A DNA stretch of 64,000 nucleotides from an uncultured Acidobacteriota bacterium (GCA_963779415.1 CAVZYA010000001.1:896001-960000); one strand, 5' to 3'; counted from the stretch's first letter, positions 4,837-19,200 are shown. A program made the numbers and translations. The notes: generated from the letters alone by a model not told the origin.

Positions 4837-5537
4837 GCGAACTCTCCCCCGGGGGTCGCCGCCGAATCCGATTCGATCCGCCCGTCGCGGAGCTTCAGCC
4901 GGCGGCGCGCCCGGGAGACGATGGCCGGGTCGTGGCTCGAAAAGACGAACGCCACGCCCCGGTCGCGATGAAGCGCATCGAAGAGGTCGAGGAGCTTCAG
5001 GGCCGTCTCGGAGTCGAGGGAGGCCGTCGGCTCGTCGGCGAGGATGACCGCCGGTTTCCCGACGAGAGCCCGCGCGACGGCCACGCGCTGGCGCTCCCCT
5101 CCCGAAAGGGCGTCGGGGCGGCGGTCGGCGAGGCGGGAGAGACCGACGGCGTCGAGCGCTTCGAGGGCCCGCCGGCGGCACTCGGCTTCCGGGACGTTCC
5201 GGATCCAGAGCGCGACGGCCACGTTCTCGGCCGCCGAGAGAACCGGAACGAGCTGGTGGGCCTGGAAGACGAACCCGATCCGCTCACGTCGGAGACGGGA
5301 CCGTTCCCGGTCGCCCTGTGCCGAGACGTCACGCCCTTCGAAAAGAAGCGTTCCCTCGTCGGGGCGGTCGAGCAGTCCGAGAAGGTTGAGGAGCGTCGTC
5401 TTCCCGCTTCCGGAGGGCCCGGCGAGAACCGCGAACTCGGCCGCCCCGACGGAGAGCGTCGCGTCCCGTATCCCCGCCACCCTCTCCTCGCCGAGGCGGT
5501 AGATGCGGGTCAGGCCGCGCGCCTCGACGATCTCCAC
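4833..5537 (-). CDS. ABC transporter ATP-binding protein, LolD-like
   Basis: Walker A GPSGSGKT, LSGGERQRVAVARAL, ILADEPT, SHD. Confidence 0.95.
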   Translation of the reverse strand: MEIVEARGLTRIYRLGEERVAGIRDATLSVGAAEFAVLAGPSGSGKTTLLNLLGLLDRPDEGTLLFEGRDVSAQGDRERSRLRRERIGFVFQAHQLVPVLSAAENVAVALWIRNVPEAECRRRALEALDAVGLSRLADRRPDALSGGERQRVAVARALVGKPAVILADEPTASLDSETALKLLDLFDALHRDRGVAFVFSSHDPAIVSRARRRLKLRDGRIESDSAATPGGEFA

Positions 5538-5543
5538 ATGACG

Positions 5544-5549
5544 AGTATA
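5544..5549 (-). promoter_or_regulatory. -10 element TATACT, 6 nt upstream of GTG 5537 (leaderless promoter)
   Basis: TATACT-cgtcat-GTG with no Shine-Dalgarno. Confidence 0.55.
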
Positions 5550-5573
5550 GGGAAGGCGCGCGGCCCGCCCTCG

Positions 5574-6512
5574 TCAGAACGAGAACGTCAGCCCCGCGCT
5601 GACGACGGCGTACTCGGTCTGGAATCCGTTCAGGTTCCTGAAGGTCGGGATCAGAACGGCCGCGCGCGCCACGACGTCCTCTCCGAGACTCACGAGAACC
5701 CGCGGAGTGACGTAGAGCAGCGCGCCGCCAGTGTCCGGATCCTGACTTCCCGCGGCGTCCACCGTGTCCTTCCCCGCCCATCTGTAGTTCAGTTCGAGAA
5801 CCGCGTCCACGACCCGGCCGAGCTTTCTCTCGTAGCCGAGATTGGCGAGGAAGATCCGGCCGTACTGATAGGCGTAGGGATTCGTCCCCGTCCATCGGAA
5901 TTGAACGGAACCGAAGACCGACGATCCGGCGTCGATCAGGTAGAACCCCCCGATTCCGCCGAAGACGTCCGTGGAGCCCGTTCCCGGCTGCACGTGCTCG
6001 TCCAGCCGGACGCCGTCGGGGCCGGTGAGGTCGTTCCGTCCCCAGGGCGTCTTCACTCCGACCTGCGCGGAGACCCAGGCGCGGCGGCCGACGCCGCGGA
6101 CCATGTCCGACGCCCAGAGACGGACCCAGGCGAAGAACTCCGGATCCGAGAGACCGTTCGTCCGGGTGACGTCCGACAGCTCGTCGCCCGTCGTCGTCAT
6201 CGTCTTGAAGCTGTACGGGACCCGGGCCACGAGATTGATCCGTTCCCCGAGCGAATACGACATCGTCGCGGTGATGCCGTTCTGGACCTCGGATTCCGCG
6301 TCCCCGGGAGGACCCTGGGATTTCTCCATCCTGTCCCAGTCGACGGCGACACGGAAGGCACCTGCCTGGAAGACGTCCGTCCCGAGGGCGTTGAAGGTGG
6401 CATCGCCGCAGCGGCACATGGAGCACGAGAGTCCCGTCGACGGTGCCGCGAGGATCAGGAGGATCGGAACAACCGGAGAGAGGCGCCCGTTTCCGAAGAG
6501 AAGCCTTCTCAT
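5574..6512 (-). CDS. Putative outer-membrane beta-barrel transporter with N-terminal CxxCxC
   Basis: Signal peptide then CSMCRC; GLSDP, QPGTGSTD; amphipathic strands; C-terminal Phe (LTFSF); SD AAGGAG. Confidence 0.7.
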   Translation of the reverse strand: MRRLLFGNGRLSPVVPILLILAAPSTGLSCSMCRCGDATFNALGTDVFQAGAFRVAVDWDRMEKSQGPPGDAESEVQNGITATMSYSLGERINLVARVPYSFKTMTTTGDELSDVTRTNGLSDPEFFAWVRLWASDMVRGVGRRAWVSAQVGVKTPWGRNDLTGPDGVRLDEHVQPGTGSTDVFGGIGGFYLIDAGSSVFGSVQFRWTGTNPYAYQYGRIFLANLGYERKLGRVVDAVLELNYRWAGKDTVDAAGSQDPDTGGALLYVTPRVLVSLGEDVVARAAVLIPTFRNLNGFQTEYAVVSAGLTFSF

Positions 6513-6565
6513 CCTGAGACTCCTTCCGAGGCGCCCTGGCCGGAAGGCTGATAATCTCCTTTCCC

Positions 6566-6862
6566 GTGAAGACGAAGGCCCTGCGCCGGACCCTCGCCGT
6601 GGCGGCGATTCTCGTCATCGTAATCGTATTCGCGCTCGAGGGGTTCCCGCACAACCACGTCGGCAGCGTGGACGGCCGTGACTGCCCCGCCTGCCAGGCG
6701 GCCCGGCAGCACGTCGGCGACGCCCCGCAATCCTCCCGCGCCCTTCTCCTCTTCACGAGGGTCGGGTCGCCGCTACCGGGCGAGCCCGCGATCGAGCGGG
6801 TCTCCGCCCCGTCCTTTGTCTCCAGCTCCTCCCCCCGAAGCCCTCCCTCCGTCTCCGTCTGA
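6566..6862 (+). CDS. Leader peptide 1: DUF2946/CruR/CutF-like putative metal-sensing ribosome-arrest uORF
   Basis: 98 aa: hydrophobic signal, HNH, DCPAC, C-terminal PRSPP; ends 46 nt upstream of the outer-membrane protein gene. Confidence 0.78.
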   Translation: MKTKALRRTLAVAAILVIVIVFALEGFPHNHVGSVDGRDCPACQAARQHVGDAPQSSRALLLFTRVGSPLPGEPAIERVSAPSFVSSSSPRSPPSVSV

Positions 6863-6908
6863 CGCGCGTTTCCCTCCACCGACCAGACGCCGCAGCAAGG
6901 AGAATCCC

Positions 6909-7967
6909 ATGCACTTACGAACGGCCGCCCTCGCCGCCCTGCTTGGCGCGAGCCTGCCGTCCCTGGCCCAGACGCCCCAGACCGGAAACGTCTTCAACCC
7001 GAACATCTCCGCGATCGGGGATTTCCTCGCCTCGACCGGGCACAACGAAGTCGACCCGATGCCGAGCCTCGCCCTCCACGAGGCGGAGCTCGGACTCCAG
7101 GCGATCGTCGACCCGTACGCCCGGGCCGACTTCTTCCTGACCTACGGGACTGATACCGGGGACGTCGCGGTCGAGGAGGGGTACGTCACCTTCCTGAACC
7201 TCCCCGGCGACATCCTCCTGAAGGCCGGCAAGCTGAAGGGAGCCTTCGGGAAGCTGAACACCGAGCATCTGCACGTCCGCCTCTTCGCCGACGTGCCGCT
7301 GCCGATGCAGAACCTCCTCGGAAGCGAGGACGGGATCGAAGACGCGGGAATCTCGATCTCGCGAATCATCCCGGCGCCGGCGGGGATCTTCCTCGAGGCG
7401 ACGGCGCAGCTCTTTCGCGGCACGACCGAGAATCTCTTCTACGCGTACACGCGAAGCGACGTCGAGCCCCTCTTCCACCTGAAGGGCTACGGAGACCTTT
7501 CCGAGTCGGCGAATCTCGAGATCGGCGGATCGTGGACGCAGGGGAGCAACCTCCAGGGGCCCGGCTACCGGACCAGCCTCACGGGGGTCGACGCGACGTA
7601 CCGCTGGAGGCCGCTCCAGCAGGGCCTCTACCACTCCCTCATCGTCCAGGCCGAGCTCTACCTCTCGGACCGGGAGGCGCCCGGGGGAACGGTCCACGCG
7701 GCCGGGTTCTACGCGCTCGCGCAATACCAGCTCGGGCGCCGCTGGTTCGCCGGCTACCGGCACGACGAGTCGGACCACGCGGACGACGCCTCGCTCCACG
7801 ACCGGGGCAACTCGCTGATGCTCACCTTCTGGCCCTCGGAGTTTTCCCAGATCCGGGCGCAGTTGCGCCAGAACCGGTACGAACTCGTCACCGGAATCTC
7901 CCAGGCGACCGAACTGATCCTCCAACTGCAGTTCTCGATCGGCGCCCACGGCGCCCACACCTTCTGA
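6909..7967 (+). CDS. Outer-membrane beta-barrel of a metal (Zn-type) uptake operon, C-terminal AHGAHxF family
   Basis: SD AAGGAG then ATG 6909; signal peptide; FNPNISAIGD, EAELGLQAIVDPY, FWPSEFSQIR, IGAHGAHTF. Confidence 0.8.
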   Translation: MHLRTAALAALLGASLPSLAQTPQTGNVFNPNISAIGDFLASTGHNEVDPMPSLALHEAELGLQAIVDPYARADFFLTYGTDTGDVAVEEGYVTFLNLPGDILLKAGKLKGAFGKLNTEHLHVRLFADVPLPMQNLLGSEDGIEDAGISISRIIPAPAGIFLEATAQLFRGTTENLFYAYTRSDVEPLFHLKGYGDLSESANLEIGGSWTQGSNLQGPGYRTSLTGVDATYRWRPLQQGLYHSLIVQAELYLSDREAPGGTVHAAGFYALAQYQLGRRWFAGYRHDESDHADDASLHDRGNSLMLTFWPSEFSQIRAQLRQNRYELVTGISQATELILQLQFSIGAHGAHTF

Positions 7968-7968
7968 C

Positions 7969-8892
7969 ATGAAAAAGAAGCTTCTTCTCGCCGCCGCCCT
8001 CCTCCTCGCGTTCCTCGCCCCCGCTCCGGCCCGGGCCGCCCGAAAGCTCCGGGTCGTCACGACGCTCTCGGACTTCGCCTCGCTCGCCCAGACGGTCGGC
8101 GGAGACCGCGTCGACGCGTCCTCGCTCGCGAAGGGGTACCAGGACCCCCACTTCGTCGAGCCGAAGCCGTCGTTCATCCTGAGGCTCCACGACGCCGACC
8201 TCTTGATCGTGGCCGGACTGGAGCTCGAGATCGGCTACCTTCCACCCCTCCTCGACCAGGCGCGCAACGACGCGATCCGCCCGTCGGGCAAGGGATATCT
8301 CGACGCCTCCATCGGCTGCGAGATCCTCGACAAGCCGACGACCCAGGTCACACGGGCGATGGGCGACGTCCATCCGTACGGCAACCCGCACTTCTGGCTC
8401 GCCCCGGCGAACGGGCGCGTCATCGCCGAGGCGATCGCCGCGAAACTCTCCGAGCTCGACCCGGACGGGGCGGCCGTCTACCGGAAGAACCTCGCCGACT
8501 TCGAAGCCCGCCTCGCGGAGGCGGAGGCGCGCTGGACGAAGATGATGGCGCCGTACGCCGGGACGAAGGTCGTCACCTATCACAGCTCCTGGCCCAACTT
8601 CGCGAAGTACTTCAATCTCGACGTGGTCGGCTTTCTCGAGCCGAAGCCCGGCGTCCCGCCGACGCCGCAGCACAAGCTCGAGATCATCAACCTGATGCTC
8701 GAGAAGAAAGTTCCGCTCATCCTGATGGAGGTCTACTTCGACCGGAAGGACCCGGACTTCGTCGCGCAGAAGACCGGCGCGAAGGTCGTGATGCTCACGC
8801 CGTCGGTCGGCGGGCTGCCGGAGGCCAGGGACTACATCGCCCTCTTCGACGTCGACATCGGCTTGATCGTCCGGGCGCTCGGAGGGAAGTAG
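7969..8892 (+). CDS. Metal ABC transporter substrate-binding protein (cluster A-I, Zn/Mn)
   Basis: DPHFVEPKP, GDVHPYGNPHFWL, YHSSW, EPKPGVPPT. Confidence 0.92.
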   Translation: MKKKLLLAAALLLAFLAPAPARAARKLRVVTTLSDFASLAQTVGGDRVDASSLAKGYQDPHFVEPKPSFILRLHDADLLIVAGLELEIGYLPPLLDQARNDAIRPSGKGYLDASIGCEILDKPTTQVTRAMGDVHPYGNPHFWLAPANGRVIAEAIAAKLSELDPDGAAVYRKNLADFEARLAEAEARWTKMMAPYAGTKVVTYHSSWPNFAKYFNLDVVGFLEPKPGVPPTPQHKLEIINLMLEKKVPLILMEVYFDRKDPDFVAQKTGAKVVMLTPSVGGLPEARDYIALFDVDIGLIVRALGGK

Positions 8893-8893
8893 C

Positions 8894-9727
8894 GTGTCGA
8901 TCTTCCAGATCCTCCTTCCGGCCTTCGTGGCGGCCGTCATCCTGACCGGGATCCACGCCTACCTCGGCGTCCACGTGGTGGAGCGCGGCGTCATCTTCGT
9001 GGACCTCTCCCTGGCGCAGATCGCCGCGTTCGGCGGCACCGTCGGCTACCTCGCCGGCTACGACATCCACTCGCCAATGGCGTATGTCTTCTCGCTCGGC
9101 TTCACCGTCCTCGGAGCCGCCATCTTCGCGTTCACCCGCGTTCACCGCCGGACCCGGATCCCGCAGGAGGCGATCATCGGGATCGTCTACGCCGTGGCCG
9201 CGGCCGCCTCGGTCCTCGTGATGTCCAAGGCGACCCGCGAGACGGAGCACCTGAAAGAGATGCTCGTCGGGAACATCCTCTCGGTCTCCTGGGAGGAGCT
9301 CGGGAAGACCGCCGTTCTCTACGCGCTCGTCGGCCTCTTCCACTTCGTCTTCCGCAAGAGGTTCCTTCTCATCTCCCGGGACGAGCCCGAAGCCGAGCGG
9401 CAGGGCATCAACATCCGCTTCTGGGACTTCCTCTTCTACGTCTCGTTCGGGTTCGTCGTGACGAGCTCCGTGGCGATCGCGGGCGTTCTCCTCGTCTTTT
9501 CGTTCCTCATCGTGCCGTCGGTCGCCGCGATGCTCTTTTCCGAGCGGCTCGGAATCCGGCTCTTGATCGGCTGGACGATGGGGGTCGGCGTCTCGGCGGC
9601 CGGCGTCGCCCTCTCGTTCTTCCTCGACCTGCCGACGGGCACCGCGATCGTCGTCACCTTCGGAATCACCCTCGTTCTCCTGGCCGGGATCCGGTGGGCG
9701 TTCGGGCTCCGCTCCGCCCGGGCCTGA
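8894..9727 (+). CDS. Metal ABC transporter permease (ABC-3 family)
   Basis: GVHVVERGVIFVDLSLAQIAA, EAIIGIVY, GVLLVFSFLIVP. Confidence 0.92.
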   Translation: MSIFQILLPAFVAAVILTGIHAYLGVHVVERGVIFVDLSLAQIAAFGGTVGYLAGYDIHSPMAYVFSLGFTVLGAAIFAFTRVHRRTRIPQEAIIGIVYAVAAAASVLVMSKATRETEHLKEMLVGNILSVSWEELGKTAVLYALVGLFHFVFRKRFLLISRDEPEAERQGINIRFWDFLFYVSFGFVVTSSVAIAGVLLVFSFLIVPSVAAMLFSERLGIRLLIGWTMGVGVSAAGVALSFFLDLPTGTAIVVTFGITLVLLAGIRWAFGLRSARA

Positions 9728-9736
9728 AACCGGAAC

Positions 9737-9759
9737 AGGGCCGGCGCGAAGCCGGCCCT
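9737..9759. terminator. GC-rich hairpin between convergent genes (possible bidirectional terminator)
   Basis: AGGGCCGGC-GCGAA-GCCGGCCCT, a perfect 9-bp stem; U-tract weak. Confidence 0.55.
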
Positions 9760-9784
9760 TCCTGATTCGGTGATCCGAACGCCG

Positions 9785-10495
9785 TCAGCCGGCTTTCGCG
9801 AGGTTTTCCGCGGCGAACTCCCAGTTGACCAGCTTCTCGAGATACGCGGTGATGTAGTCGGGGCGCCTGTTCTGCCAGTCCAGGTAGTAGGCATGCTCCC
9901 AGACGTCCATCGTCAGGAGCGGCGTGGCGGCGGTCGTGAGCGGCGTTTCGGCGTTCGGAGTCTTTGCGCACTTCAACTTTCCGCCGTCGAGAACGAGCCA
10001 GGCCCAGCCGCTGCCGAACTGGGTCACCCCGGTCGTCGCGAACTCCTTCTTGAAGTTCTCGAGCCCGCCGAAGTCCTTCTCGATCATCTCCTTCAGCTTC
10101 CCCGACGGAGAGCCGCCCCCCTTGGGCCTCATGCTCTTCCAGTAGAAGGTGTGGTTCCAGACCTGCGCCGCGTTGTTGAAGATCCCGGCCTTGTCGGGCT
10201 TCCCCGCGACGGCCCTGACGATCTTCTCGAGGGGCAGGTCGGCCAGCTCGGTCCCGGCGATCAGCTTGTTCGTGTTGTCCACGTATGCCTTGTGGTGCTT
10301 GCCGTAGTGGAAGGAGATCGTGTTCGCAGAGATCTCCGGGGCGAGGGCGTTGTCGGAGTACGGGAGAGGCGGAAGTTCGATCATCGAGGCTCCTTTCAGG
10401 ATTGCCGGCGAGCCGAGAACCACCGCCGCGGCGCCGGTCGCCACGACGAGGTCGCGTCGTGTGAGCATAGAGGATTCGCTCCGGCCGTTGGTCAT
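9785..10495 (-). CDS. sodB: Fe superoxide dismutase with twin-arginine (Tat) signal peptide
   Basis: HYGKHH, FNNAAQVWNHTFYW (Fe-type), QFGSGW, DVWEHAYY; N-terminal TRRDLV plus hydrophobic stretch. Confidence 0.92.
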   Translation of the reverse strand: MTNGRSESSMLTRRDLVVATGAAAVVLGSPAILKGASMIELPPLPYSDNALAPEISANTISFHYGKHHKAYVDNTNKLIAGTELADLPLEKIVRAVAGKPDKAGIFNNAAQVWNHTFYWKSMRPKGGGSPSGKLKEMIEKDFGGLENFKKEFATTGVTQFGSGWAWLVLDGGKLKCAKTPNAETPLTTAATPLLTMDVWEHAYYLDWQNRRPDYITAYLEKLVNWEFAAENLAKAG

Positions 10496-10573
10496 GGCTC
10501 CCCTTTTCGCATCCGCATCCCATTATCCGACGGAAAAAGCCGAGCGGATGCCCGCCGGCGCGGCTCGGAGGCC

Positions 10574-13012
10574 TCAGAAGAGAAACGTGAGCTTCCCGGC
10601 GACCGTCCGGGGCGGGATGACGTGGGTTCCGCCGAAGACGGACTGGAAATTATAGAGACCCTGAACGTCGAAGGCGTTGAGGAGGTCGACCTGAAGCTCG
10701 AGCGGAAGGCCATACTTCTGGAGGCCCGCGCCGATGGAAAAGTTCCAGATCGTCCGCGACTTCACGCGCTGAGGGTCCTCGTTGAAGTTGATGTAGGGAG
10801 CGGCATAGGCCGTGTCGGGGCTCGAGAGAACGTCCTGGATCGTCCCGGCGTCCGTGACGAGGCCCGAATCGTACCGCTGCGTCATGCCGACCCAGACCCC
10901 CGTGCTCCCGAAGTTGTAGAAGAGGCCCACCTGCTCCTGGATGTCCTGGTCGTGGTCGATGACGAAGCAACCGCCTTCGAGAGACGACAGAAAGTCGGCC
11001 GTCAGGAAGAGGCCGCCGACGTTCGGATTGCAATACACCGCGTGCACGTGTCCGATCGACGCGTACCCGTAAAGGCCGCCGAGGACGGGGGCCAGGTCGA
11101 GCCGGACGTTCCAGCCGTTCAGCTTCCCGCTCGCGAAGTTGAGAGGGAAGACGATGCCCGTATTGAAGAACTGGTCCTGATCGGCGGCGTTCGTCACGTT
11201 CCGGTACCAGTACGAGACGTCCAGCCGCAGCTTCGTCCCGATCCCCTGCTGGACCCCGACGTTGTAGACGTCGTGCCGCTCCGAGACGTTGTAGAGGTCG
11301 CCCCCCCCTAGCTGCGGCGCCTCCTGGATCTGGGGCGGGGCGATCGACGCCGCCTGGGGTGACGAGGAGAGAAGGATGTTCTCGTACTCCGGCGTAATGA
11401 ACATCCGGTCGTAGGAAGCCCGGAAGACGGTGTTCGTGGCCCCCAGGAAATAGGCGACGCCGACGCGAGGCTGGAGCTGGTGCTCGGATTCGAAGAGATA
11501 GTTGTGGTCGAACCGGATGCCGACATTCGCGGTCAGGTCGTTCCACCGGATGCTGTCCTGGAGAAATCCGGCGACGTAAGCGCCCGTCCTCGATCCCGTG
11601 AAGTAGAAGGGGGAGCCTCCCCGCGTTCCGTCGTACGGGGCGAGGTTCGGGTTGTAGCTCTCCGACGCCGGGTCGTTGTAGGCCGGGTCGGTCACGAGGA
11701 AGGAAAACTGCTCCGAGATCGGAAAGCGCTTCGCCTGGATGCCGGCCTTGAATTCGTTGATCCCGATCGTCTTCGACAGGGCGACGTTGAATCCCTGGTT
11801 CTCGAGCGACCGGTTCTGGTCCGCCTGGACAGGGGTGTCGAAGGACGACCCGTAGAGGATCAGGCGGTTGTCCCGCGCGTAGAGCTGTCCCTCCAGCACC
11901 CAGGCGTCCCCGAAGACGTGCTGGTAGCCGAGGTTGAGGTTCCAGTCGTTCGAGACCACCTGGTCGCTCTGCCCGGCCAGCTCCTGGGACGGGAGGTTCG
12001 TGACGTCGCGCTCCGTCCGCCCGAGGTTGGCGCTGAGCCTCCAGCTGTCCGATGCGCTCGCCGAGACCGAATCGAGGCGCACGAAGCCGCGTACCGCGCT
12101 TCCCGTGTTGTGGGAGTTGTCGAACGAGACTGGATCGAGAAACCGGTCGGAGCGCGAAGCGTCCGCGTCGGCGAACCAGCCGAACCGGCTGTCGCCCCCT
12201 CCGGCCGAGACCGAGCCGACTCCCGTCCCGAACGAGGCGCCTCCCAGGGAAACCTCGCCCCTGACTCCGTTGGTCCCGAGGCCCGACCGGGTCGTCAGGT
12301 TGATGACGCCATTCGCCTTCTCTCCGTATTCCGCCGGGATCCCCCCCGTGATGACCTCGACGCCCTCGGCGACTCCGGGATTGAGGGAGTTCGAGAACGT
12401 GATGCCGATCTGGTCTCCGATCGGCTGGCCGTCGACGACGAGGAGCTGCTGCGAGTGTCCTCCCTGGAAGTGGTACCGCCCGTTCTCGTCCTGCGAGAAG
12501 CCGGGGGTCGACGTCACGAGCGACTCGAAGGCCCGGCTCGGCATTCCGCCCGGGGACCGCCGGATGAGCGACTTGTCGATGTCCACGTGCGTGGACGGGT
12601 CGTCGGTCTCCAGCGCGACCGGCTCCTTCTCGGCCTCGACCGTGGTCGATGCCGTGGCCGAGAGGCTCAGGACGATGTCCCGGACCACCGGTGCGGAGCC
12701 TCTCACGTCCAGATCGGTGTGATAGGGAGCGAAGCCGTCCAGAGAGGCGGTGAGGTGATAGGGGTTGGCGGGGACGTTGTAGAGGAGGTAGGCACCGTCC
12801 AGCCCGGACGTCGCCTGCTGGCGATACCCGGTGATGTCATTCGTCAGGGCGATGCTCACGCCGGGGAGCGGCATGCCGTCGGGGCCGATGACGTGCCCCC
12901 GGACCCGGCCGGCAACGGCGGTCATTGCAGAGACGGGACGGGAGACGACGACGGCAACCAAGAGAAAGACGAGCGCAAACGCGACGCGGCGAGCGATGTC
13001 TCTGGGCCTCAT
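10574..13012 (-). CDS. TonB-dependent receptor with N-terminal carboxypeptidase-regulatory-like domain
   Basis: SD AAGGAGG then ATG 13012; signal peptide; GRVRGHVIGPDG..LPGVSI; plug VDGQPIGD..GGIPAEYG..GVINLTTRSG; C-terminal PRT..LTFLF. Confidence 0.9.
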   Translation of the reverse strand: MRPRDIARRVAFALVFLLVAVVVSRPVSAMTAVAGRVRGHVIGPDGMPLPGVSIALTNDITGYRQQATSGLDGAYLLYNVPANPYHLTASLDGFAPYHTDLDVRGSAPVVRDIVLSLSATASTTVEAEKEPVALETDDPSTHVDIDKSLIRRSPGGMPSRAFESLVTSTPGFSQDENGRYHFQGGHSQQLLVVDGQPIGDQIGITFSNSLNPGVAEGVEVITGGIPAEYGEKANGVINLTTRSGLGTNGVRGEVSLGGASFGTGVGSVSAGGGDSRFGWFADADASRSDRFLDPVSFDNSHNTGSAVRGFVRLDSVSASASDSWRLSANLGRTERDVTNLPSQELAGQSDQVVSNDWNLNLGYQHVFGDAWVLEGQLYARDNRLILYGSSFDTPVQADQNRSLENQGFNVALSKTIGINEFKAGIQAKRFPISEQFSFLVTDPAYNDPASESYNPNLAPYDGTRGGSPFYFTGSRTGAYVAGFLQDSIRWNDLTANVGIRFDHNYLFESEHQLQPRVGVAYFLGATNTVFRASYDRMFITPEYENILLSSSPQAASIAPPQIQEAPQLGGGDLYNVSERHDVYNVGVQQGIGTKLRLDVSYWYRNVTNAADQDQFFNTGIVFPLNFASGKLNGWNVRLDLAPVLGGLYGYASIGHVHAVYCNPNVGGLFLTADFLSSLEGGCFVIDHDQDIQEQVGLFYNFGSTGVWVGMTQRYDSGLVTDAGTIQDVLSSPDTAYAAPYINFNEDPQRVKSRTIWNFSIGAGLQKYGLPLELQVDLLNAFDVQGLYNFQSVFGGTHVIPPRTVAGKLTFLF

Positions 13013-13023
13013 GGGGATTCGAG

Positions 13024-13111
13024 CCTCCTTCTGATGAATCAGGCAGGAAAGGAGACCGCGGCAGGCGGCCTCCCGGACCACGGACGACGGGCGTCTCTAC
13101 GCGGCCGGGAG
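13024..13111 (-). promoter_or_regulatory. Putative translational attenuator (segments 1:2, 2:3, 3:SD) between leader 2 and the TonB receptor
   Basis: mRNA segment 1 CUCCCGGCCGCG (13111-13100); segment 2 CGUGGUCCGGGAGGCCGC (13082-13065); segment 3 GCGGUCUCCUUU (13059-13048); SD AAGGAGG (13030-13024); pairings are mutually exclusive. Confidence 0.6.
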
Positions 13112-13375
13112 ACGGGGCGGGGAACGCCCCGTGAGATCCGGAAGGGACGGCCGGGCGACAGGGGTCTCTGCAGACGGCACGACCCCGGGCACCGAGCCCG
13201 GCTGAGCGACGATTGTCGGACCGGCGGCACCTTCGTGGGCGCTCGCGAGAGCGCACGCGAGGCACGCTCCGTCCTGCGTTCCCGTCGCCGCAGCGTGGGC
13301 GTGAAGCCCTGCAAGCGCTGCCAGGAAGAGCGCGAGAAGCCCCGCGGAGAGGAGGCGACGCGCGAGTCCCCTCAT
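13097..13375 (-). CDS. Leader peptide 2: DUF2946/CruR/CutF-like uORF
   Basis: 92 aa: signal peptide, HAH, ACLAC, C-terminal GRSPPRLPAA; paralogue at 16470-16748. Confidence 0.82.
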   Translation of the reverse strand: MRGLARRLLSAGLLALFLAALAGLHAHAAATGTQDGACLACALASAHEGAAGPTIVAQPGSVPGVVPSAETPVARPSLPDLTGRSPPRLPAA

Positions 13376-13439
13376 GGGTTCGGGAATTCTGGCAAGTGCG
13401 TCCTAGTCATCCGTCTCGTGCCCCGACAATTCGGTTTCC

Positions 13440-15893
13440 CTACTGCGGGAGGAGCGTCGCCGGGTCGTTCGTCCCGTTGTTGACGAGCGAGGCGAATCCC
13501 GTGAAGGTCGCTCCCGGAGTCGTCGTCCAGACGACGAGGGTCCCCGCCGATCCTTTTGGCGCCCCGACGCCCGTCGTGACGACCCGGTTGATCTGCGTCA
13601 TCCCGAGCTGCGCGAGTGTCACGCTCTGCGTCGTTCCGAGCTGCGTCCCGTCGTCGGCGTACAGGGCGTAACCGACGGTGATCGGGTAGGGGGTGACCCC
13701 TCCGTCCGGCGGCCCGTTCACGAGGACGAGGTTGGTCCTCACCTTGTCATCCTCGCGGACTCCCACGATCGCCACATTCGTCCCGGGCCGGAACCACGAC
13801 GCACTCGGGATCCCCGGCACGCTCTGGCCGAAGCGCCCCGGCCCGGATGGCGCCGGGGTCGTCGTCACGCTGTCGATGGCGAGACCCGGCGAGCTGCTCG
13901 TGACGAGGATGGCGCCGAAGTCCCGGTTCGACGAAAGGCCGAAGACAGAGCCGAGGACGTCGCGGAACGTGTAAGCCGTCTGCGGGTTCAGCGAGTAGCT
14001 CTTCGTCGGTCCCGTGCTTCCGTCGGGCGTCCCGAACGCGAGATAGCGCAGCGTCACGTTCGCCGACGTGGAGCCGACGTTCGCGAGGAAGAAGTCGGTG
14101 GTGTACATGGCCGGGGCTGCCACCGTGCCGCCGGCGGACCGGGCGACCGAGGGGACGATGAAGCTGGCGGCGCCGCTTCCGCCGAACCCGGTCGAGGCGA
14201 AGAGAGTCGCCGGGTCGTTCGTCCCGAGATTGTCGAGGAGGGAGGCGAAGGCCGTGAAGGCGCCCCCCGAGGTCGTCGTCGAGAGCGTGATCGTCGCGTT
14301 GGACGTGCTGCGGGTCCCCGTGATCGTCTGGATGACTCGGGGGAGCTGGGTCATCTCCAGCGGCTGCAGCGTCGGCGGCGTCAGCGTCCCGAGGTTCGCG
14401 CCGTTGTCGTCCCGGAGGCCGATCAGAACGTCGAGCGGCTGGTCGGTGGTGTTGACGAGGACGAGGTTCGTCCGGGCGGTGGAATCCTCACGGACTCCGG
14501 CGATCGCTCCCGGGGAGCCGGGCGAGATGAGCTGGGACGCCATCACCGCCGGAACGCTCTGGCCGAAGGCTCCCGTGCCGTCGGGCGTCGGGGTCGTCGT
14601 GACGCTCGAGACCTTCAGCGACGCCGAATTCGCGCTGACCCGGATCGCGCCGTAGTTGTTCCCCGTGAGGCCGAAAAGAGACGAGAGGACGTCCGCGTAG
14701 GTGAGGGCGTCCCCCGGGGCCACCGTCGCCGTCAGCTCGGGGCCCGAGGTCCCGTCCCCGTCGTGGCCGAGAAACTTGAATATCATGGTCGCGTCCGAGG
14801 ACCCTTCGTTCGCGACGAAGAGGTCCGTCGTGAAAAACGCCGGGGCGGCCGGCGTGCCGCCGGCCGTATGGGCGACCGATGCGACGTAGTAGTACGTCGG
14901 ACCGATCGGCGACGAGCCCCACCAGCCGATGTCCCGGAGGGCGTTCGGCGTGATGTCGACCCCGATCGGGAGATCGTCGTTGATGACCGGCTCCATCAGG
15001 ATGTCCGGGACGCACGACGTGTCCCAGTGCGACACGTTCGAGCCCGCCTGCACCGGGTTCGGCGCGTAGAGGAGCATCTGCCCGGCCGTGTTCATCCCCT
15101 TTCGCTGGACGAGGTACGCCGCCCCCGCCGCGTTCGCGGACGGGCCGGTCCAGACGAGGTTCCCCGTGTTGATCGCCGAAGCTTGCCGCTCGGCATCCGT
15201 CGCCATGTCGTTCCAGCTCTTCTTCGCCGTCGTGTCGTAGACGAAGGCGTCGAAAATGTCGGGCTGCGGCTGGTCTTGACAGCAGAACGTACCGGTCGTC
15301 TCGTCCGCGAGAGAGAGGAAGCCGAGGCCGTGGGCCGTCTCGTGAAGAGCGACCGTCAGGAGGTTGATGTCGCCGGAAGGGGTGTTCGTGTCGAAGCCGT
15401 AATAAAAATTGGTTCCGCTCAGGCAGCCGGACTGCCCCAGCATGCTGTTGAACTGCGTCGTCATGTATCCGACGTACCCTGCTTCGTAGGGGGGCTCGAG
15501 GTCGTAGCCCGCGAGCTGGCTCGCCTCGGCCACGACGTACCAGACGCCCGGGAGGACTCCGTCGGCGAAATCGGACTCGACGTAGTTCGGCGACGTCCCT
15601 CCGAGGACAGCCGTCGTCGATGAGCACGAGAGGGACTCGAAAGAGGCCCAAACGGTGATGTTGACGTTCCCGGGAAGGATGCCGCCCCAGATATCGGCGG
15701 CCTTTTGCAGCACGTTCATCCGCTGCTGGCCGATCGTCGTCCCGGGGTTTCCGCCGACGGGCGTGGCCGGTGTCGGGTCGTTCAGTCCCTGACCGGCGGC
15801 GTCCTTGTTGACGATCGTGATCGTCACGGCATGGGCGGGGAGGACGGCGAGAAAGACGAGAAGGACCGCGAGAAGAAGCGTCGTCCGGCGCAT
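13440..15893 (-). CDS. Secreted HEXXH zinc metallopeptidase with two tandem copies of an uncharacterised C-terminal domain
   Basis: Signal peptide; GLNDPTPATPVGGNPGTTIGQQR; LHETAHGLGF; SHWD..LMEP; repeats begin VASVAH..TTDLFVAN and VPSVAR..TTDFFLAN, and both end in GTNDPATL. Confidence 0.82.
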   Translation of the reverse strand: MRRTTLLLAVLLVFLAVLPAHAVTITIVNKDAAGQGLNDPTPATPVGGNPGTTIGQQRMNVLQKAADIWGGILPGNVNITVWASFESLSCSSTTAVLGGTSPNYVESDFADGVLPGVWYVVAEASQLAGYDLEPPYEAGYVGYMTTQFNSMLGQSGCLSGTNFYYGFDTNTPSGDINLLTVALHETAHGLGFLSLADETTGTFCCQDQPQPDIFDAFVYDTTAKKSWNDMATDAERQASAINTGNLVWTGPSANAAGAAYLVQRKGMNTAGQMLLYAPNPVQAGSNVSHWDTSCVPDILMEPVINDDLPIGVDITPNALRDIGWWGSSPIGPTYYYVASVAHTAGGTPAAPAFFTTDLFVANEGSSDATMIFKFLGHDGDGTSGPELTATVAPGDALTYADVLSSLFGLTGNNYGAIRVSANSASLKVSSVTTTPTPDGTGAFGQSVPAVMASQLISPGSPGAIAGVREDSTARTNLVLVNTTDQPLDVLIGLRDDNGANLGTLTPPTLQPLEMTQLPRVIQTITGTRSTSNATITLSTTTSGGAFTAFASLLDNLGTNDPATLFASTGFGGSGAASFIVPSVARSAGGTVAAPAMYTTDFFLANVGSTSANVTLRYLAFGTPDGSTGPTKSYSLNPQTAYTFRDVLGSVFGLSSNRDFGAILVTSSSPGLAIDSVTTTPAPSGPGRFGQSVPGIPSASWFRPGTNVAIVGVREDDKVRTNLVLVNGPPDGGVTPYPITVGYALYADDGTQLGTTQSVTLAQLGMTQINRVVTTGVGAPKGSAGTLVVWTTTPGATFTGFASLVNNGTNDPATLLPQ

Positions 15894-15897
15894 CTCG

Positions 15898-16383
15898 TCA
15901 CTTCTCCTCGGCGGCGGGCTTGGCCGCGGGGGCGGGGGCTTTCAGGGCTTCGCCGACCTTCGAAGCCGGCACGCACTCCTCGGAGAGCGTTCCGTCCGCG
16001 TTCTTCCGGACGACGGAATAACGGAAGTACTCGGGGCCTAGCTGCGCCCGCCTCCGCCCCGACGGGAGAGTTTCGACGGTCGTCGTCCGGACCCCCTTCG
16101 AGAAGGCCGGCTTGATCGCCGCCCCCGCGGCGCGAAGAGCCTCGATCTCCTTCGCCGTCGGCGCGCGAAGCTTCCCGGTGTCCGGATCCCTCACCACGAT
16201 CATCCGCGGTGCGGTCTTGCCGGCAGGCTCGGCGGCCGCCGGGGACTTCGGCGCGTCGCAGGCTGGCACAGTTTCCTTCGTGTCTCCTGCGAGAGCGCCA
16301 GTCGAGGCGAATAGAGCCCCCGCGAGAACCACCAATCCCGTCGGAGAAATCTTCATGCGGCAGGTACTGTTCCGGAGTGTCAT
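15898..16383 (-). CDS. Small secreted partner protein (DPxTGxLRAPT motif; post-PEP-CTERM-like domain)
   Basis: SD AAGGAGG then ATG 16383; signal peptide; VVRDPDTGKLRAPTAKE; YSVVRKNADGTLSEECV; stop 4 nt before the peptidase ATG. Confidence 0.72.
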   Translation of the reverse strand: MTLRNSTCRMKISPTGLVVLAGALFASTGALAGDTKETVPACDAPKSPAAAEPAGKTAPRMIVVRDPDTGKLRAPTAKEIEALRAAGAAIKPAFSKGVRTTTVETLPSGRRRAQLGPEYFRYSVVRKNADGTLSEECVPASKVGEALKAPAPAAKPAAEEK

Positions 16384-16393
16384 GACCTTCGGG

Positions 16394-16484
16394 CCTCCTT
16401 CCGAATGACGAATCAGGGAGGGAGACCGCAGCAGGCGGCCTCCCGGACCACGGACGACGACGACCGTCTCTACGCGGCCGGGAG
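16394..16484 (-). promoter_or_regulatory. Putative translational attenuator, copy 2
   Basis: Segment 1 16484-16473 and segment 2 16452-16435 identical to copy 1; segment 3 GCGGUCUCCCUCCC 16429-16416; SD 16400-16394; UGA-UUCG-UCA cap in the 3:4 hairpin. Confidence 0.6.
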
Positions 16485-16748
16485 GAAAGGCGGGGAACGC
16501 CCCGTCAGATCCGGGAGGGAGGGCCGGGCGGGAGGAAGATCGGCGGAAGGTACGACCCCGGGCACCGAGTCCGGTTGGGGGACGATTGTCGGGCCGGTGG
16601 CACCCTCGTGGGCGCTCGCGAGAGCACACGCGAGGCAAGATCCGTCCTCCCCTCCCACCGTCGCCGCATGGACATGAAGCCCAGCAAGCGCCGTCAGGAA
16701 GAGCGCGAGAAGCCCCGCGGTGAGTAAGCGGCGCCCGAATCCCCTCAT
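16470..16748 (-). CDS. Leader peptide 3: DUF2946/CruR/CutF-like uORF
   Basis: 92 aa: signal peptide, HVH, SCLAC, GRSPPFLPAA; preceded by extended -10 TGcTAGACT (16767-16759). Confidence 0.82.
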   Translation of the reverse strand: MRGFGRRLLTAGLLALFLTALAGLHVHAATVGGEDGSCLACALASAHEGATGPTIVPQPDSVPGVVPSADLPPARPSLPDLTGRSPPFLPAA

Positions 16749-16775
16749 GGGTGACAGAAGTCTAGCAAACGGGTC

Positions 16776-17582
16776 TCAGTCCCCCCTCTGGCGACGCGAG
16801 AGAAGAAAGGCCGCGACGAAGAGAACGGCCCCGAGGAGGATGATGGCCGCCCCCGACGCGACGTTCAGGGCGACGGAGAGGAAGAGGCCCCCGAGGACCA
16901 TGACGAGGGCCGCGCCGATGGAGCCCGAGAGGAGCCCGGGCCACCGGTCGAAGAGGGTCCGTGCGGTGGCCCCCGGAAGGACGAGGAGGGCCGCGACGAG
17001 GAGGATGCCGACGACCTTCAGCGCGACGACGACCGCGAGCGAGATCAGGACGAGGACGAGGAGGCGCATCGCCCCGACGTTCACGCCGGCGGCCCGGGCG
17101 CCGTCCTCGTCCACGGAGGCGAGGAGAAGCGGCCGGAACCAGGCCGCGAAGACCACGAGGACGGCGAGCGCGGTGCCGACGAGGATCGCGAGGTCGGCGG
17201 GGCTGACCGTCAGGATGTTCCCGAACATCAGGCCGAAAAGGTCGACGTTCGTCTTCACGAAGCCGAGGGCCACGACGCCGACAGCCATCGCCGCCACCGT
17301 GGACACGCCGATGGCGGCGTCCTCCGAGACTCCCGAAGCTTCCGACGCGTGGGCCGTCGCCAGCGCCACGACGAGCGCGGCGACGAGCGCTCCGGGGCCG
17401 GGCGGGAGGCCCGCCAGCGTCGCCACGGCCACGCCTCCGAAGGCCGCATGCGCCACCCCCGATCCCGCGAAGGCGAGCCGCCGGAGGACGACGAAGAAGG
17501 AAAGCGCCCCGCAGAGGACCGCCGCCACGACGCCCGCGACGAGCGCCCGCTGGAAGAACGGGTAGGCGAGGAACTCGATCAC
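16776..17582 (-). CDS. znuB: Metal ABC transporter permease (ZnuB-like)
   Basis: FFQRALVAG, FVVLRRLAFAGSGVAHAAFGG, LMFGNIL, KVVGILLVAALLVLP. Confidence 0.88.
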   Translation of the reverse strand: MIEFLAYPFFQRALVAGVVAAVLCGALSFFVVLRRLAFAGSGVAHAAFGGVAVATLAGLPPGPGALVAALVVALATAHASEASGVSEDAAIGVSTVAAMAVGVVALGFVKTNVDLFGLMFGNILTVSPADLAILVGTALAVLVVFAAWFRPLLLASVDEDGARAAGVNVGAMRLLVLVLISLAVVVALKVVGILLVAALLVLPGATARTLFDRWPGLLSGSIGAALVMVLGGLFLSVALNVASGAAIILLGAVLFVAAFLLSRRQRGD

Positions 17583-18247
17583 CGCGGTGCCTCCACCGGC
17601 TCCTCCGTGACGACCCCGTCCACACGGAAGAGGGCGTCCGCCCCCCCCATCGAATCCGTGTCGTGGGAGACGAAGAGAATGGTCCGCCCAGCCGCCGTCT
17701 CCTCGGCGATGACGCGGCGAAGGGTCATGAGCCCGTTCGAGTCGAGGGCCGTGTCGGGCTCGTCGAGGACGAGCATCGCGGGGCTTCCCGCGAGCGCCCT
17801 CGCGAGCAGAACCCTCTGGCGCTGCCCGCCGGAGAGCTTCCCCACCGGGCGGTCGAGCGTCTCCGCAGGAAGACCAGCCCGGAGGAGGGCGGCGCGGGCT
17901 TCGCCCCGCGCCTCGTCGCGGCGCCCGAACCCCGGGCGCGGGTCGAGCGAGAGGGCCACGAGATCGACGCCGGAGACGGGAGCCAGCGCCGAGAGGGTCG
18001 AGCGCTGCGAGAGATATCCGACGCGGGGACGAGGGACCTCGCGTCCCGATTCGTCCACGAAAACGACCCGGCCCGAATCGGCCGCGATCGCACCGACGAG
18101 AACGCGAACGAGCGTCGTCTTCCCCCCGCCGTTCGGCCCGACGAGGGCGGTCCGGACGCCGGGAGGAACCGAGAAGGAGACGTCCCGGAGGACCGGACGC
18201 CCGCCGAGCGACGCCGTGATTCCCTCGAAACGGATGCCGACTCTCAA
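17579..18247 (-). CDS. znuC: Metal ABC transporter ATP-binding protein (ZnuC-like)
   Basis: TTG 18247 overlaps the binding-protein stop, SD GGAGG; GPNGGGKTT, LSGGQRQRVLLARAL, LDEP, VSHD. Confidence 0.88.
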   Translation of the reverse strand: MRVGIRFEGITASLGGRPVLRDVSFSVPPGVRTALVGPNGGGKTTLVRVLVGAIAADSGRVVFVDESGREVPRPRVGYLSQRSTLSALAPVSGVDLVALSLDPRPGFGRRDEARGEARAALLRAGLPAETLDRPVGKLSGGQRQRVLLARALAGSPAMLVLDEPDTALDSNGLMTLRRVIAEETAAGRTILFVSHDTDSMGGADALFRVDGVVTEEPVEAPR

Positions 18248-19149
18248 CGGACCTCCAGCCCGTCCCGGAATGCCCGCGCGTTGAAGAGGAGAAGCTCCTC
18301 GTATCCGAGGCGCCCCGGCAGGCCGCCGACCGGGTCGACCATCTCGACCCTGAGCCCCGCCTCGTCCGCGACGACGCGGGCCGCCTCGAGCGGAAACTGC
18401 GGCTCCGTGAAGAGCGTCCGGAGCCCCTCTCGCCGTGCCGCCAGGACGAGCGACTGGATCTCCCGCGGCGACGGCTCGCGTCCCGGCACCGGCTCGATGG
18501 AGCCCGCCGGCTTCAGCCCATAGCGATCGGCGAAGTAGGCCCAGGCGTTGTGCGCCGTGACGATGGACGATCCCGCGACGGGGCGGAGTGTCCGCGAGAT
18601 CTCGGCGTCGAGGCGCGAAAGCTCCGCCGAGAAGGCTGCCGCGCGGCCGCGGTAGCCCGCGGCGCCCGCCGGGTCGATTGCCGACAGCTCCCCGGCCAGC
18701 GCGGGGAGGATCTTCGCGACGAGAGGGGGCGAGAGCCACCAGTGAGGATCGTGGCCGAGGACGCCGTCCTCGTCCTCGCCGTGCGCCTCGCCTTCGCCCA
18801 GGGCCACGATCCCGGCCGCTTTCCCGCCGTCGAACAGCTTCGCGTCCGAGGCGCACGCCGCCGCCAGCTTCGCAACCCATCCGTCGTACCCCGCCCCGAC
18901 GGTCACGACGAGCCGCGCCCGCGCCACGAGGCGCACCTCCTTCGGAGTCGGCTCGAAGACGTGCGGGGAGACTCCCGGCGGAACGATCGTCCGGACCTTC
19001 CACCCGGGCCCCGCCACGTGCGCCACGACATCCGCGAGCGGCGAGATCGTCGCCGCGGCGGCCAGTGCCTCCGGCGCGGGCGCCCGCCCGGCGCAGGCGG
19101 CGATCAGGAGGGCGCCGAGGGAGGAGGCGAGCCGGGGCATCCTCCGCAT
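18244..19149 (-). CDS. znuA: Metal ABC substrate-binding lipoprotein (ZnuA-like); start may be 19140
   Basis: Lipobox LIAAC; SPHVFEP; His/acidic loop EGEAHGEDED..HDPHWW; AHNAWAYF. Confidence 0.88.
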   Translation of the reverse strand: MRRMPRLASSLGALLIAACAGRAPAPEALAAAATISPLADVVAHVAGPGWKVRTIVPPGVSPHVFEPTPKEVRLVARARLVVTVGAGYDGWVAKLAAACASDAKLFDGGKAAGIVALGEGEAHGEDEDGVLGHDPHWWLSPPLVAKILPALAGELSAIDPAGAAGYRGRAAAFSAELSRLDAEISRTLRPVAGSSIVTAHNAWAYFADRYGLKPAGSIEPVPGREPSPREIQSLVLAARREGLRTLFTEPQFPLEAARVVADEAGLRVEMVDPVGGLPGRLGYEELLLFNARAFRDGLEVR

Positions 19150-19200
19150 TGTCGGGGGTCGGCCCCGATTTCCTCAAGCGCGATCGTCCCGCGCACGCCG

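Follow-up and report, generated by a model that had tools for sequence, protein, structure and literature searches.

CruR (Bp2923) of Bordetella pertussis is the DUF2946 (PF11162) upstream open reading frame (uORF) of cruR-bfrG-bp2921, and stands before the TonB-dependent transporter BfrG. It requires both a CxxC and an RAPP motif, whose spacing is 45 residues within 1-2 residues, and an export signal is found in >95% of DUF2946 members; the stall at RAPP sustains transcription, copper relieves the stall and Rho then terminates, and CruR works without its signal peptide (PMC9426467). When CruR arrests in vitro, its two Pro codons occupy the P and A sites, and EF-P does not relieve arrest at RAPP, as in ApdA/ApdP (PMC12992588). 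The present work concerns three short open reading frames (ORF1-3) of comparable design, which lie within about 10 kb of a 64,000-nucleotide (nt) stretch of DNA, hereafter the window, from an uncultured Acidobacteriota bacterium (GCA_963779415.1 CAVZYA010000001.1:896001-960000). The source genome, of 4.36 Mb, ~68% G+C and 92% completeness, belongs to the soil Acidobacteria.

In the second described system, CutF of Rhodobacter capsulatus, a copper-induced stall melts a stem-loop that masks the Shine-Dalgarno (SD) sequence; the same work lists 5,334 'CutF-like' proteins, among whose neighbours TonB-like proteins are the second most frequent, and some CutF-like clusters are His-only and thought to be Ni or Co sensors (PMC9973294; 10.1101/2025.02.05.636593). 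The main text of the CutF work has 0 occurrences of 'acidobacteri', 'zinc' and 'znua' (PMC9973294; 10.1101/2025.02.05.636593), and the accessible part of PMC12992588 has 0 occurrences of 'zinc' and 'porin'. As to the RSPP variant of the arrest motif, it has been described as 'partially permissive' and as strongly depleted from proteomes (PMC12992588), RxPP stalls ribosomes when x is S, A, G or P (PMC7897499), and RSPP occurs in uORFs clustering with RAPP ones (PMC10987492). RAPP/RGPP uORFs before TonB receptors are reported to be general in Gram-negative bacteria (PMC12992588). No metal-linked RSPP leader was found in the literature on RSPP ribosome stalling, the supplements of which may already list these ORFs or their ZnuA neighbours. 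The account of CruR, CutF and ApdA/ApdP given in a first-pass annotation of this DNA agrees with the accessible parts of these papers.

Here, I establish the three ORFs, their conservation at the peptide level, the motifs and their spacing, the link of homology to the CruR family, the gene contexts and a set of predicted RNA pairings; on these grounds ORF1-3 are quite probably cis-acting regulatory leaders of the CruR/CutF (DUF2946-like) class, in which a stall at RSPP would keep the downstream genes on. The ORFs are as follows.

6566 to 6862, plus strand: ORF1, leader ORF of 98 amino acids (aa) with a GTG start, HNH, CPAC and RSPP, then four codons and the stop
13097 to 13375, minus strand: ORF2, leader ORF of 92 aa with HAH, CLAC and RSPP, then RLPAA and the stop
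16470 to 16748, minus strand: ORF3, leader ORF of 92 aa with HVH, CLAC and RSPP, then FLPAA and the stop

All three are found where the first-pass annotation had placed them, with the signal, HxH, CxxC, Pro-containing linker and RSPP 4-5 codons before the stop that it had described, and each stands directly upstream of an operon, again as claimed: at distances of 46-86 nt follow a porin with ZnuA and an ABC-3 permease (ORF1), a TonB receptor (ORF2), and a post-PEP-CTERM protein with an HExxH protein (ORF3). HNH, CPAC and RSPP are at residues 29, 40 and 91 of ORF1, with 4 codons to the stop; the corresponding positions are 25, 38 and 84 in both ORF2 (HAH, CLAC) and ORF3 (HVH, CLAC), with 5 codons to the stop. 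Pro residues make up 6 of the 47 linker positions between CxxC and RSPP in ORF1, 7 of 42 in ORF2 and 9 of 42 in ORF3. ORF2 and ORF3 are paralogues (82% amino-acid identity), and ORF1 shares 33-36% with either. In ORF1, 4 K/R residues are followed by a 15-aa hydrophobic window with a Kyte-Doolittle mean of 3.45; the same window averages 2.48 in ORF2 and 2.32 in ORF3, and across ORF1-3 it is preceded by 3-4 K/R. The three ORFs hence show the export signal expected of the CruR family (K/R and a hydrophobic window), as judged by Kyte-Doolittle values only.

How often such a design arises by chance was assessed on the 34,988 stop-to-stop segments of at least 60 aa in the six frames of the 4.36-Mb genome. 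R[SAG]PP within the last 4-13 residues occurs in 298 of them, and this tail alone is therefore common noise; when a CxxC 40-48 residues upstream is added, 5 of the 34,988 segments are left, three of which are ORF1-3. The remaining two are Arg-rich, lie in alternative frames and have no hydrophobic N-terminus. That three ORFs share tail and CxxC is more than chance. A profile of ORF1-3 searched against their own genome detected no additional copy.

Substitutions among ORF2, ORF3 and the metagenomic orthologues L053 and L054 fall mostly on third codon positions (14/8/24, 24/18/40, 8/7/20, 20/17/44, 12/9/25 and 18/18/40 for first, second and third positions), and the RxPP residues (Arg, Ser/Ala/Gly, Pro) are written in many different codons over 32 leader ORFs. 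The motif Ser is AGC in the lineage of ORF1 and TCN in that of ORF2/3, each of which is one step away from an alternative residue, namely Gly GGC from AGC and Ala GCN from TCN. Because of the third-position bias and of a motif kept in varied codons, conservation, as read from these alignments, acts at the peptide level.

No SD precedes ORF1-3, and the genes next to them carry GGAG or GGAGG. An extended -10-like element (TGnTAnnnT/TGnCAnnnT) lies 9-12 nt before each leader start (within 6545-6565, 13376-13400 and 16749-16775) and is kept in L054, L053 and L058; the lack of an SD together with this conserved element suggests leaderless or near-leaderless transcripts. A scan of 6300-19400 for sigma-70 consensus promoters returned 0 promoter-like sites, and in the same interval 12 terminator-like sites were counted against 7.1 +/- 3.3 expected, 0 of them in the three leaders. 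Rfam gave no family at E<=1 over 6000-19500, which argues that no known riboswitch or leader is present there.

The design recurs in other Acidobacteriota. Protein databases of 5.8 billion and 1.84 billion sequences yielded only 6 relatives and 8 representatives; such leader ORFs are thus rarely called as genes, and further relatives were therefore sought by six-frame genome searches. The tails of the database relatives read ...LTGRSPPRLPAA, ...PRSPPSISV, ...GRAPPRLPAA (P0007) and ...GRAPPALPGSPA (P0013), and the third of these differs from the ORF2 tail GRSPPRLPAA by a single Ala-for-Ser change in ten residues. At class level, 17 of 401 genomes gave matches, the source genome counted, and 13 of 17 non-self places examined have the full design (L016, L018, L020 and L022 lack it and are left out of the counts). 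At phylum level, 29 of 301 genomes, searched in six frames, gave a match to the Pfam DUF2946 model at E<=0.01, 3 of them over the cut-off, and the same design is present in 14 of 20 stop-free places examined; L032, L034, L038, L049, L050 and L052, as well as 9 places with internal stops, were left out.

The first-pass annotation had proposed a survey of such uORFs in Acidobacteriota, and 27 loci were thus retained (13 from the class and 14 from the phylum search, after dropping places without the design). In all 27 the N-terminus is hydrophobic, an HxH is often present, CxxC comes next, and R[S/A/G]PP follows after 42-47 residues, with 1-9 codons left to the stop. The spacing from CxxC to RxPP is 42 in nine loci, 43 in two, 44 in eleven, 45 in four and 47 in one, and the distance from RxPP to the stop is 2-5 codons in 25 of the 27. 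When the three window ORFs and L053, L054 and L062 are added, the motif over the resulting 33 leader ORFs is RSPP in 14, RAPP in 15 and RGPP in 4, RSPP being confined in this set to the family of the window (two genera), to unplaced metagenome contigs and to one metagenome-assembled genome (MAG) of the Thermoanaerobaculia. Among 27 downstream proteins that were scanned, 12 are TonB receptors (Plug and CarboxypepD_reg), 2 have Band_7 and 1 is an OEP efflux protein; porin homologues, with at least 28% identity to the window porin, account for 10 of 26 non-window downstream proteins. In all 3 loci that were extended, which belong to three genera and include one RGPP locus, the leader ORF is followed by porin, ZnuA and ABC-3 permease in this order. 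A single-protein search of genome contigs for related loci found none.

An orthologue of ORF1 is present in a genome of the same genus (L006/L058). A few genes downstream of its leader-porin-ZnuA operon, at L058:525-842 (minus strand; genome G052), a 105-aa His-rich protein with many HxH/HxxH repeats and no Pfam match is encoded. At another locus (L055, G272:C7) the leader ORF is followed by a porin gene divided between two frames, where a frameshift or an assembly error is possible.

As regards membership of the CruR family, Pfam and NCBIfam scans of ORF1-3 gave nothing usable, and the PF11162 model found no match in the six-frame translation of the source genome. A hidden Markov model search against DUF2946, put forward by the first-pass annotation as a check, thus failed for ORF1-3 themselves, and membership comes from profile-profile and motif evidence only. 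Sub-threshold PF11162 matches (the gathering score is 23.7 bits) were obtained for 3 of 7 relatives, at E values of 0.03, 0.31 and 0.66, and always cover the C-terminal 70 model positions, ending at RxPP. Next, the window family (A5, 19 sequences) was compared by its profile with an acidobacterial DUF2946-type set (A6, 14 sequences, of which three, L024-L026, are over the Pfam DUF2946 cut-off): hhalign aligns the two with 96.1% probability and E 3.3e-9 over 83 columns, with HxH, CxxC and RxPP in register, for sequences that are short and compositionally biased. Both Cys of CxxC are invariant in A5 and A6. Where the literal family description has RAPP ~3 residues from the C-terminus, ORF1-3 have RSPP 4-5 residues from the end; relatives show RAPP or RGPP at the aligned position, in line with the earlier view of CruR/CutF-like leaders with RSPP as a variant of RAPP. 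The spacing from CxxC to RSPP is 47 (ORF1) and 42 (ORF2 and ORF3), near the published 45 within 1-2 and, for ORF2 and ORF3, just outside that range. As in that family, the three ORFs head operons with a TonB transporter or metal-homeostasis genes. Since they have no PF11162 match and yet show the profile-profile alignment and the shared motifs, ORF1-3 are best regarded, on sequence grounds, as a divergent branch of the DUF2946 superfamily that falls outside it by the Pfam criterion.

How a stall on such an ORF could be read out is suggested by the RNA between each leader ORF and the next gene.

6863 to 6908, plus strand: leader between ORF1 and the porin gene, 46 nt, with a C-rich stretch
13013 to 13096, minus strand: leader between ORF2 and the TonB receptor gene, 84 nt, with an invariant 26-nt core and a GGAGG SD
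16384 to 16469, minus strand: leader between ORF3 and the post-PEP-CTERM gene, 86 nt, sharing the conserved core of the ORF2 leader

In the first leader, pairing is predicted between the final codons of ORF1 (GUCUCC) and the SD of the porin gene (AAGGAGA), and the probability of this SD being unpaired rises from 0.01-0.21 in the free RNA to 0.46-0.65 when the footprint of a stalled ribosome is masked. In the other two, the 26-nt core is invariant in ORF2, ORF3, L053 and L054, despite 82 of 276 nt differing between the ORFs of L053 and ORF2. The RNAalifold consensus of five ORF2-type leaders contains 27 pairs in two helices: one joins the last ORF codons and the stop (CUCCCGGCCGCG) with the core (CGUGGUCCGGGAG), and the other joins a CUCC tract with the SD. 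An SD-like GGGAGG in the core can pair instead with the CUCC tract, and in this alternative helix of 10 pairs 92% of cells are paired, versus 44-68% in slid controls. The predicted layout therefore has four segments, namely the ORF end (A), core (B), CUCC tract (C) and SD (D), with A:B and C:D formed at rest, and B:C formed and D free when a ribosome sits on A. Along the same line, 25 loci with a recognisable SD were compared with 200 genes under matched masking: the median SD accessibility of the loci goes from 0.05 in the free RNA to 0.24 once the stall footprint is masked, against 0.24 and 0.25 in the control genes, and a shift of at least 0.15 on masking is seen upwards in 10 of 25 loci and downwards in 0, against 44 up and 15 down among the 200 controls.

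The same RNA could be read in another way. C>G bubbles are found at the 3' ends of all three ORFs (+0.33, +0.19 and +0.29, against 0.04 +/- 0.09 in neighbouring genes), the value of +0.33 for C minus G being located at 6812-6889, at the end of ORF1. A rho gene is present in the genome, and CruR, which among characterised relatives before a TonB receptor is the closest, acts through Rho (PMC9426467). In leaders of the same class, a stalled ribosome might then block Rho loading on the C-rich ORF 3' end and leader, in the manner of CruR or TnaC, and the invariant 26-nt core could be a pause or termination region. This Rho-dependent read-out, which is compatible with the SD-based one, can be entertained with some reserve: the leaders are short (46-86 nt; that of cruR-bfrG has 162 nt), strong structure is predicted for them while rut sites have none, the C-richness derives in part from Pro/Ser/Ala codons, and SD masking has statistical support across loci.

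Which metal would act, and in which direction, is best considered from the genes that the leaders precede. These and their neighbours are as follows.

6909 to 7967, plus strand: porin of an unnamed family, 352 aa, first gene after ORF1, with invariant His residues
7969 to 8892, plus strand: ZnuA-type (cluster A-I) binding protein of an ATP-binding cassette (ABC) importer (PF01297, 4.4e-51)
8894 to 9727, plus strand: ABC-3 permease, ZnuB/AztB-like (PF00950, 8.6e-37)
9785 to 10495, minus strand: Fe/Mn superoxide dismutase (SOD; Sod_Fe_N and Sod_Fe_C) with a twin-arginine-type N-terminus (…TRRDLV…)
10574 to 13012, minus strand: TonB-dependent receptor (CarboxypepD_reg and Plug), downstream of ORF2
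13440 to 15893, minus strand: secreted HExxH metalloprotease-like protein, 817 aa (NF038122, 8.5e-10, below cut-off)
15898 to 16383, minus strand: secreted protein with a post-PEP-CTERM-1 domain, 161 aa (NF047450, 87.7 bits against a cut-off of 28), after ORF3
16776 to 19149, minus strand: second set of ZnuA, ABC ATPase and ABC-3 permease, directly upstream of ORF3 on the same strand

The best Protein Data Bank match of the ZnuA of the ORF1 operon is Synechocystis ZnuA (2ov1/1pq4), with the histidines of DPH, NPHFW and YHSSW aligned, which I take to be the three zinc ligands of the Synechocystis protein. The operon has no ATPase gene. Its 352-aa porin has no Pfam match and a weak match to the LbtU porin (6e-4); an AlphaFold2 model (pLDDT 75, pTM 0.75) is a 16-stranded barrel, for which Foldseek retrieves PorB, Omp32, OprP and OprO (E ~1e-11, TM score 0.53-0.62). 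In the alignment of the porin family (A7), H120 and H122 of an NTEHxH motif are invariant, and a C-terminal GAHGAHxF is also seen; these invariant His residues hint at a metal-selective channel. In the second set, ZnuA (18244-19149, 4.3e-63) and the ABC-3 permease (16776-17582, 2.9e-57) are assigned by their domains, and the ATPase is putative, from a Walker A motif in the translation. The TonB receptor after ORF2 has no sequence relative in the Protein Data Bank at E<=1e-3, and the 817-aa HExxH protein no Pfam match. From the ZnuA-type protein, the earlier proposal that the targets look Zn/Mn- and not Cu-related is plausible with regard to zinc.

For ORF1-3 I infer the following course, from arrest to RNA-level read-out. 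The ORF would be translated from its SD-less, possibly leaderless start, and its N-terminus targeted for export. The ribosome would arrest at R-S-P-P, by analogy with the CruR toeprint with the P site on the first Pro codon and the A site on the second, and at that moment HxH/CxxC would be just out of the exit tunnel, because they lie 42-47 residues behind the motif. The stalled ribosome would cover the last ORF codons, which pair with the leader in the resting mRNA, thereby exposing the SD of the next gene, and might also keep Rho off the C-rich tract; the downstream genes would be on for the duration of the stall. A metal on the nascent HxH/CxxC site is expected to alter that duration. With the polarity of CruR, the absence of metal would mean stall and expression, and bound metal would mean release and shut-off. 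Zinc is the most likely ligand, favoured because of the Zn-type ZnuA context, and copper is the alternative.

By analogy with the two described systems, the polarity of CruR is more likely than that of CutF, since the controlled genes are importers (porin-ZnuA-ZnuB, TonB receptor). The opposite case, in which metal induces or prolongs the stall and the downstream genes are on under metal excess, is how CutF acts, which also needs its signal peptide (PMC9973294; bioRxiv 2025.02.05.636593), and one surveyed relative heads the OEP efflux gene mentioned above; it is nevertheless improbable here, for induction of ZnuA/ABC-3, porin and TonB receptor import under metal excess would be harmful.

A reading in which each ORF product is a small, stable protein that binds metal, is anchored in the membrane or periplasmic and might serve the transporters as chaperone or accessory factor, while RSPP has no regulatory role, would account for HxH and CxxC, which could make a Cys2His2 metal site, and for the position of the ORFs next to transporters. 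It is rather unlikely, given a linker between CxxC and RxPP that is poorly conserved in sequence and fixed in length, an RxPP that is invariant and always 1-9 codons from the stop, and SD-less ORFs that always stand 5-303 nt (mostly 33-138 nt) before a strong-SD gene on the same strand; moreover, CruR and CutF are undetectable as stable proteins (PMC9426467, PMC9973294). Precursors of ribosomally made metallophores or modified peptides, exported and re-imported via the neighbouring TonB receptor, would suit small Cys/His peptides beside a TonB receptor and proteases, but are scarcely credible: the genes examined at 3604-19149 include no modification enzyme, conservation falls on an N-terminal export segment and a C-terminal RxPP, unlike a leader/core layout, and porin-ZnuA operons are headed by this design too.

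A number of findings weigh against the reading of ORF1-3 as metal-sensing arrest leaders. The GC3 (third-position G+C) of ORF2 and ORF3 is 0.73-0.74, lower than in neighbouring genes (0.81-0.93), while that of ORF1 is 0.89. ORF1-3 have no PF11162 match even at E<=10, and PF11162 matches at E<=1 occur in only 2 of the 19 members of the A5 family. Compensatory base changes number 0 of 27 pairs in the consensus structure and 0 of 10 in the alternative helix, in an alignment of five similar sequences. In a first control, set against 200 genes, the SDs of the window are unremarkable (34th, 9th and 17th percentile); in the matched one, the Mann-Whitney U p-values of 1e-4 (lower free accessibility) and 4e-4 (larger gain) for 25 loci versus 200 controls overstate the effect, because the 25 loci are interrelated and come from several genomes and the controls from one. 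The SD after ORF2 is not freed by masking (0.07 to 0.07-0.21; in the matched design, 0.23 to 0.20). The targets of ORF3, a secreted protein and a protease, do not obviously fit a logic of uptake, and zinc and periplasmic sensing are guesses from context, CruR itself sensing cytoplasmic copper.

ORF2 and ORF3 are parts of a larger repeated unit.

13018 to 13416, minus strand: cassette copy 1 (~400 bp), comprising 41 nt before the leader ORF, the ORF itself and the leader as far as the SD
16388 to 16789, minus strand: cassette copy 2, whose upstream end overlaps the 3' end of znuB

In a local alignment of the two copies, 332 of 392 ungapped columns are identical (85%), and the aligned block begins 41 nt before the start codon and ends at the SD of the gene that follows. 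L054 has its leader ORF directly after znuB and before a TonB receptor, and the junction of znuB and leader ORF seen in copy 2 recurs in L054 and L062. The latter (minus strand), from the Thermoanaerobaculia MAG, has the cassette after znuB and before an S53/sedolisin-type peptidase (Pro-kuma_activ, 3e-29) with PKD domains, which stands in the place of the post-PEP-CTERM and HExxH pair of the window. The C-terminal residues of the L062 peptidase ORF recur at the end of the gene that precedes the second copy on metagenome contig L053, and L065, the fragment of the second copy from the same MAG, matches L053 over its length, this copy preceding a TonB receptor. Two cassettes hence bracket a secreted protease gene in two genomes, and the proteases differ. 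A 22-nt pattern from the leader core was found on 11 genome contigs, of which two (L062 and L065) are relevant; the other 9 (8 Actinomycetota and 1 Polyangiaceae MAG) appear to be coincidences in DNA rich in G+C. L062 also has a short ATG ORF, out of frame, in which the first codons of the TonB receptor gene are copied.

A bolder proposal may be ventured, with much less confidence than the leader function itself: these would be zinc-sensing nascent-chain switches, whose Cys2His2-like HxH...CxxC site is read through a deliberately weak RSPP arrest, and which travel as a portable ~400-bp cassette (start, leader ORF, four-segment leader, SD) that has been duplicated and has captured new targets, such as the metalloprotease pair of the window and the S53 peptidase of the related MAG. 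If true, it would imply a translational zinc regulon over porin, ABC importer, TonB receptor and proteases, beside or instead of Zur. The idea that a metal leader acts in place of a repressor is unsupported: no Fur-family gene is present in the window, but the genome has two on another contig. Upstream of ORF1-3, no shared palindrome was seen by eye, no full operator search having been made.

Some neighbouring genes deserve a brief mention. The Fe/Mn SOD gene is directly downstream of the TonB receptor gene and possibly in the same operon, and a table in a Caulobacter Zur paper shows a comparable neighbourhood (CC1775 DUF2946, CC1777 sodA, CC1778 TonB receptor; PMC4176598). A Sod_Cu search of the 92%-complete genome found no Cu,Zn-SOD gene; the notion of the twin-arginine-type Fe/Mn SOD as a substitute for Cu,Zn-SOD was considered and dropped. 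Divergent from ORF1, a 312-aa exported protein (5574-6512, minus strand) with CSMCRCGD near its N-terminus has no Pfam or NCBIfam match, and is followed by a MacB-type ABC pair at 4833-5537 and 3604-4830 (both minus strand), that is, an ABC_tran ATPase and a MacB_PCD/FtsX permease.

To sum up, ORF1-3 represent a new, unannotated acidobacterial branch of a known type of switch and not a new kind of switch. The novelty rating of the first-pass annotation is too high, as RSPP has already been described as a partially permissive variant of RAPP (PMC7897499, PMC12992588), and it is further limited by the RAPP/RGPP uORFs already reported before TonB receptors (PMC12992588). The picture of how CruR/CutF switches work is unchanged by ORF1-3. 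Their interest lies in that the principle of CruR and CutF, whereby a nascent exported peptide senses metal and sets its own stall, would extend to an acidobacterial branch missed by gene callers and by Pfam, in which the leaders precede TonB receptors, secreted proteases and, together with a dedicated porin, ABC importers of the Zn type. In addition, the three paralogues in a 10-kb island, together with the RAPP/RGPP/RSPP relatives with otherwise matching tails, form a natural series in which the tuning of arrest strength by the middle residue and the identity of the sensed metal can be addressed, and the duplicated cassette shows a route by which such a switch may be moved before new genes.

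Compared with CruR, ORF1-3 have in common a small exported uORF with CxxC, a spacer of comparable length (42 or 47 residues, against 45) and RxPP a few residues before the stop, as well as a C>G bubble at the ORF 3' end and the control of an import function, for which the same polarity is expected; ORF2, like CruR, is directly upstream of a TonB-dependent transporter. They differ in having RSPP and not RAPP, an additional HxH after the export segment, a length of 92-98 aa versus 145 aa, leaders that are shorter than the 162 nt of CruR and predicted to be structured, and no match to the Pfam model. The targets in the window add a porin-ZnuA-ZnuB importer and a pair of secreted protein and protease, the phylum is Acidobacteriota, and the metal is probably not copper.

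With CutF of the cutFOG operon, ORF1-3 share an exported leader, a Cys motif, a C-terminal Pro motif and a stall proposed to free the SD, and like the 'CutF-like' proteins of PMC9973294 they are <150 aa, have PP among their last 15 residues, carry an N-terminal signal and are followed within 1000 nt by a gene on the same strand. CutF has CxxxC and PPP, depends on EF-P and turns a detoxifying oxidase on at high copper, whereas ORF1-3 have RxPP and importer targets. ApdA, ApdP and the Streptomyces set (PMC7897499, PMC12992588) likewise have RxPP near the C-terminus of a small exported protein, but ApdA and ApdP monitor Sec/YidC function and have no metal site; where secDF, secA, yidC or another protein-localisation gene would be expected downstream of such monitors, ORF1-3 are followed by a porin with ZnuA, a TonB receptor and a post-PEP-CTERM protein.

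Finally, the four-segment leader of the ermC type is the classical design of translational attenuation. The ORF2-type leaders are predicted to resemble it, a ribosome stalled on A allowing B:C to form and freeing D, the SD; the difference is that in ORF2-type leaders the stall would be set by a metal site on the nascent chain and not by an antibiotic.

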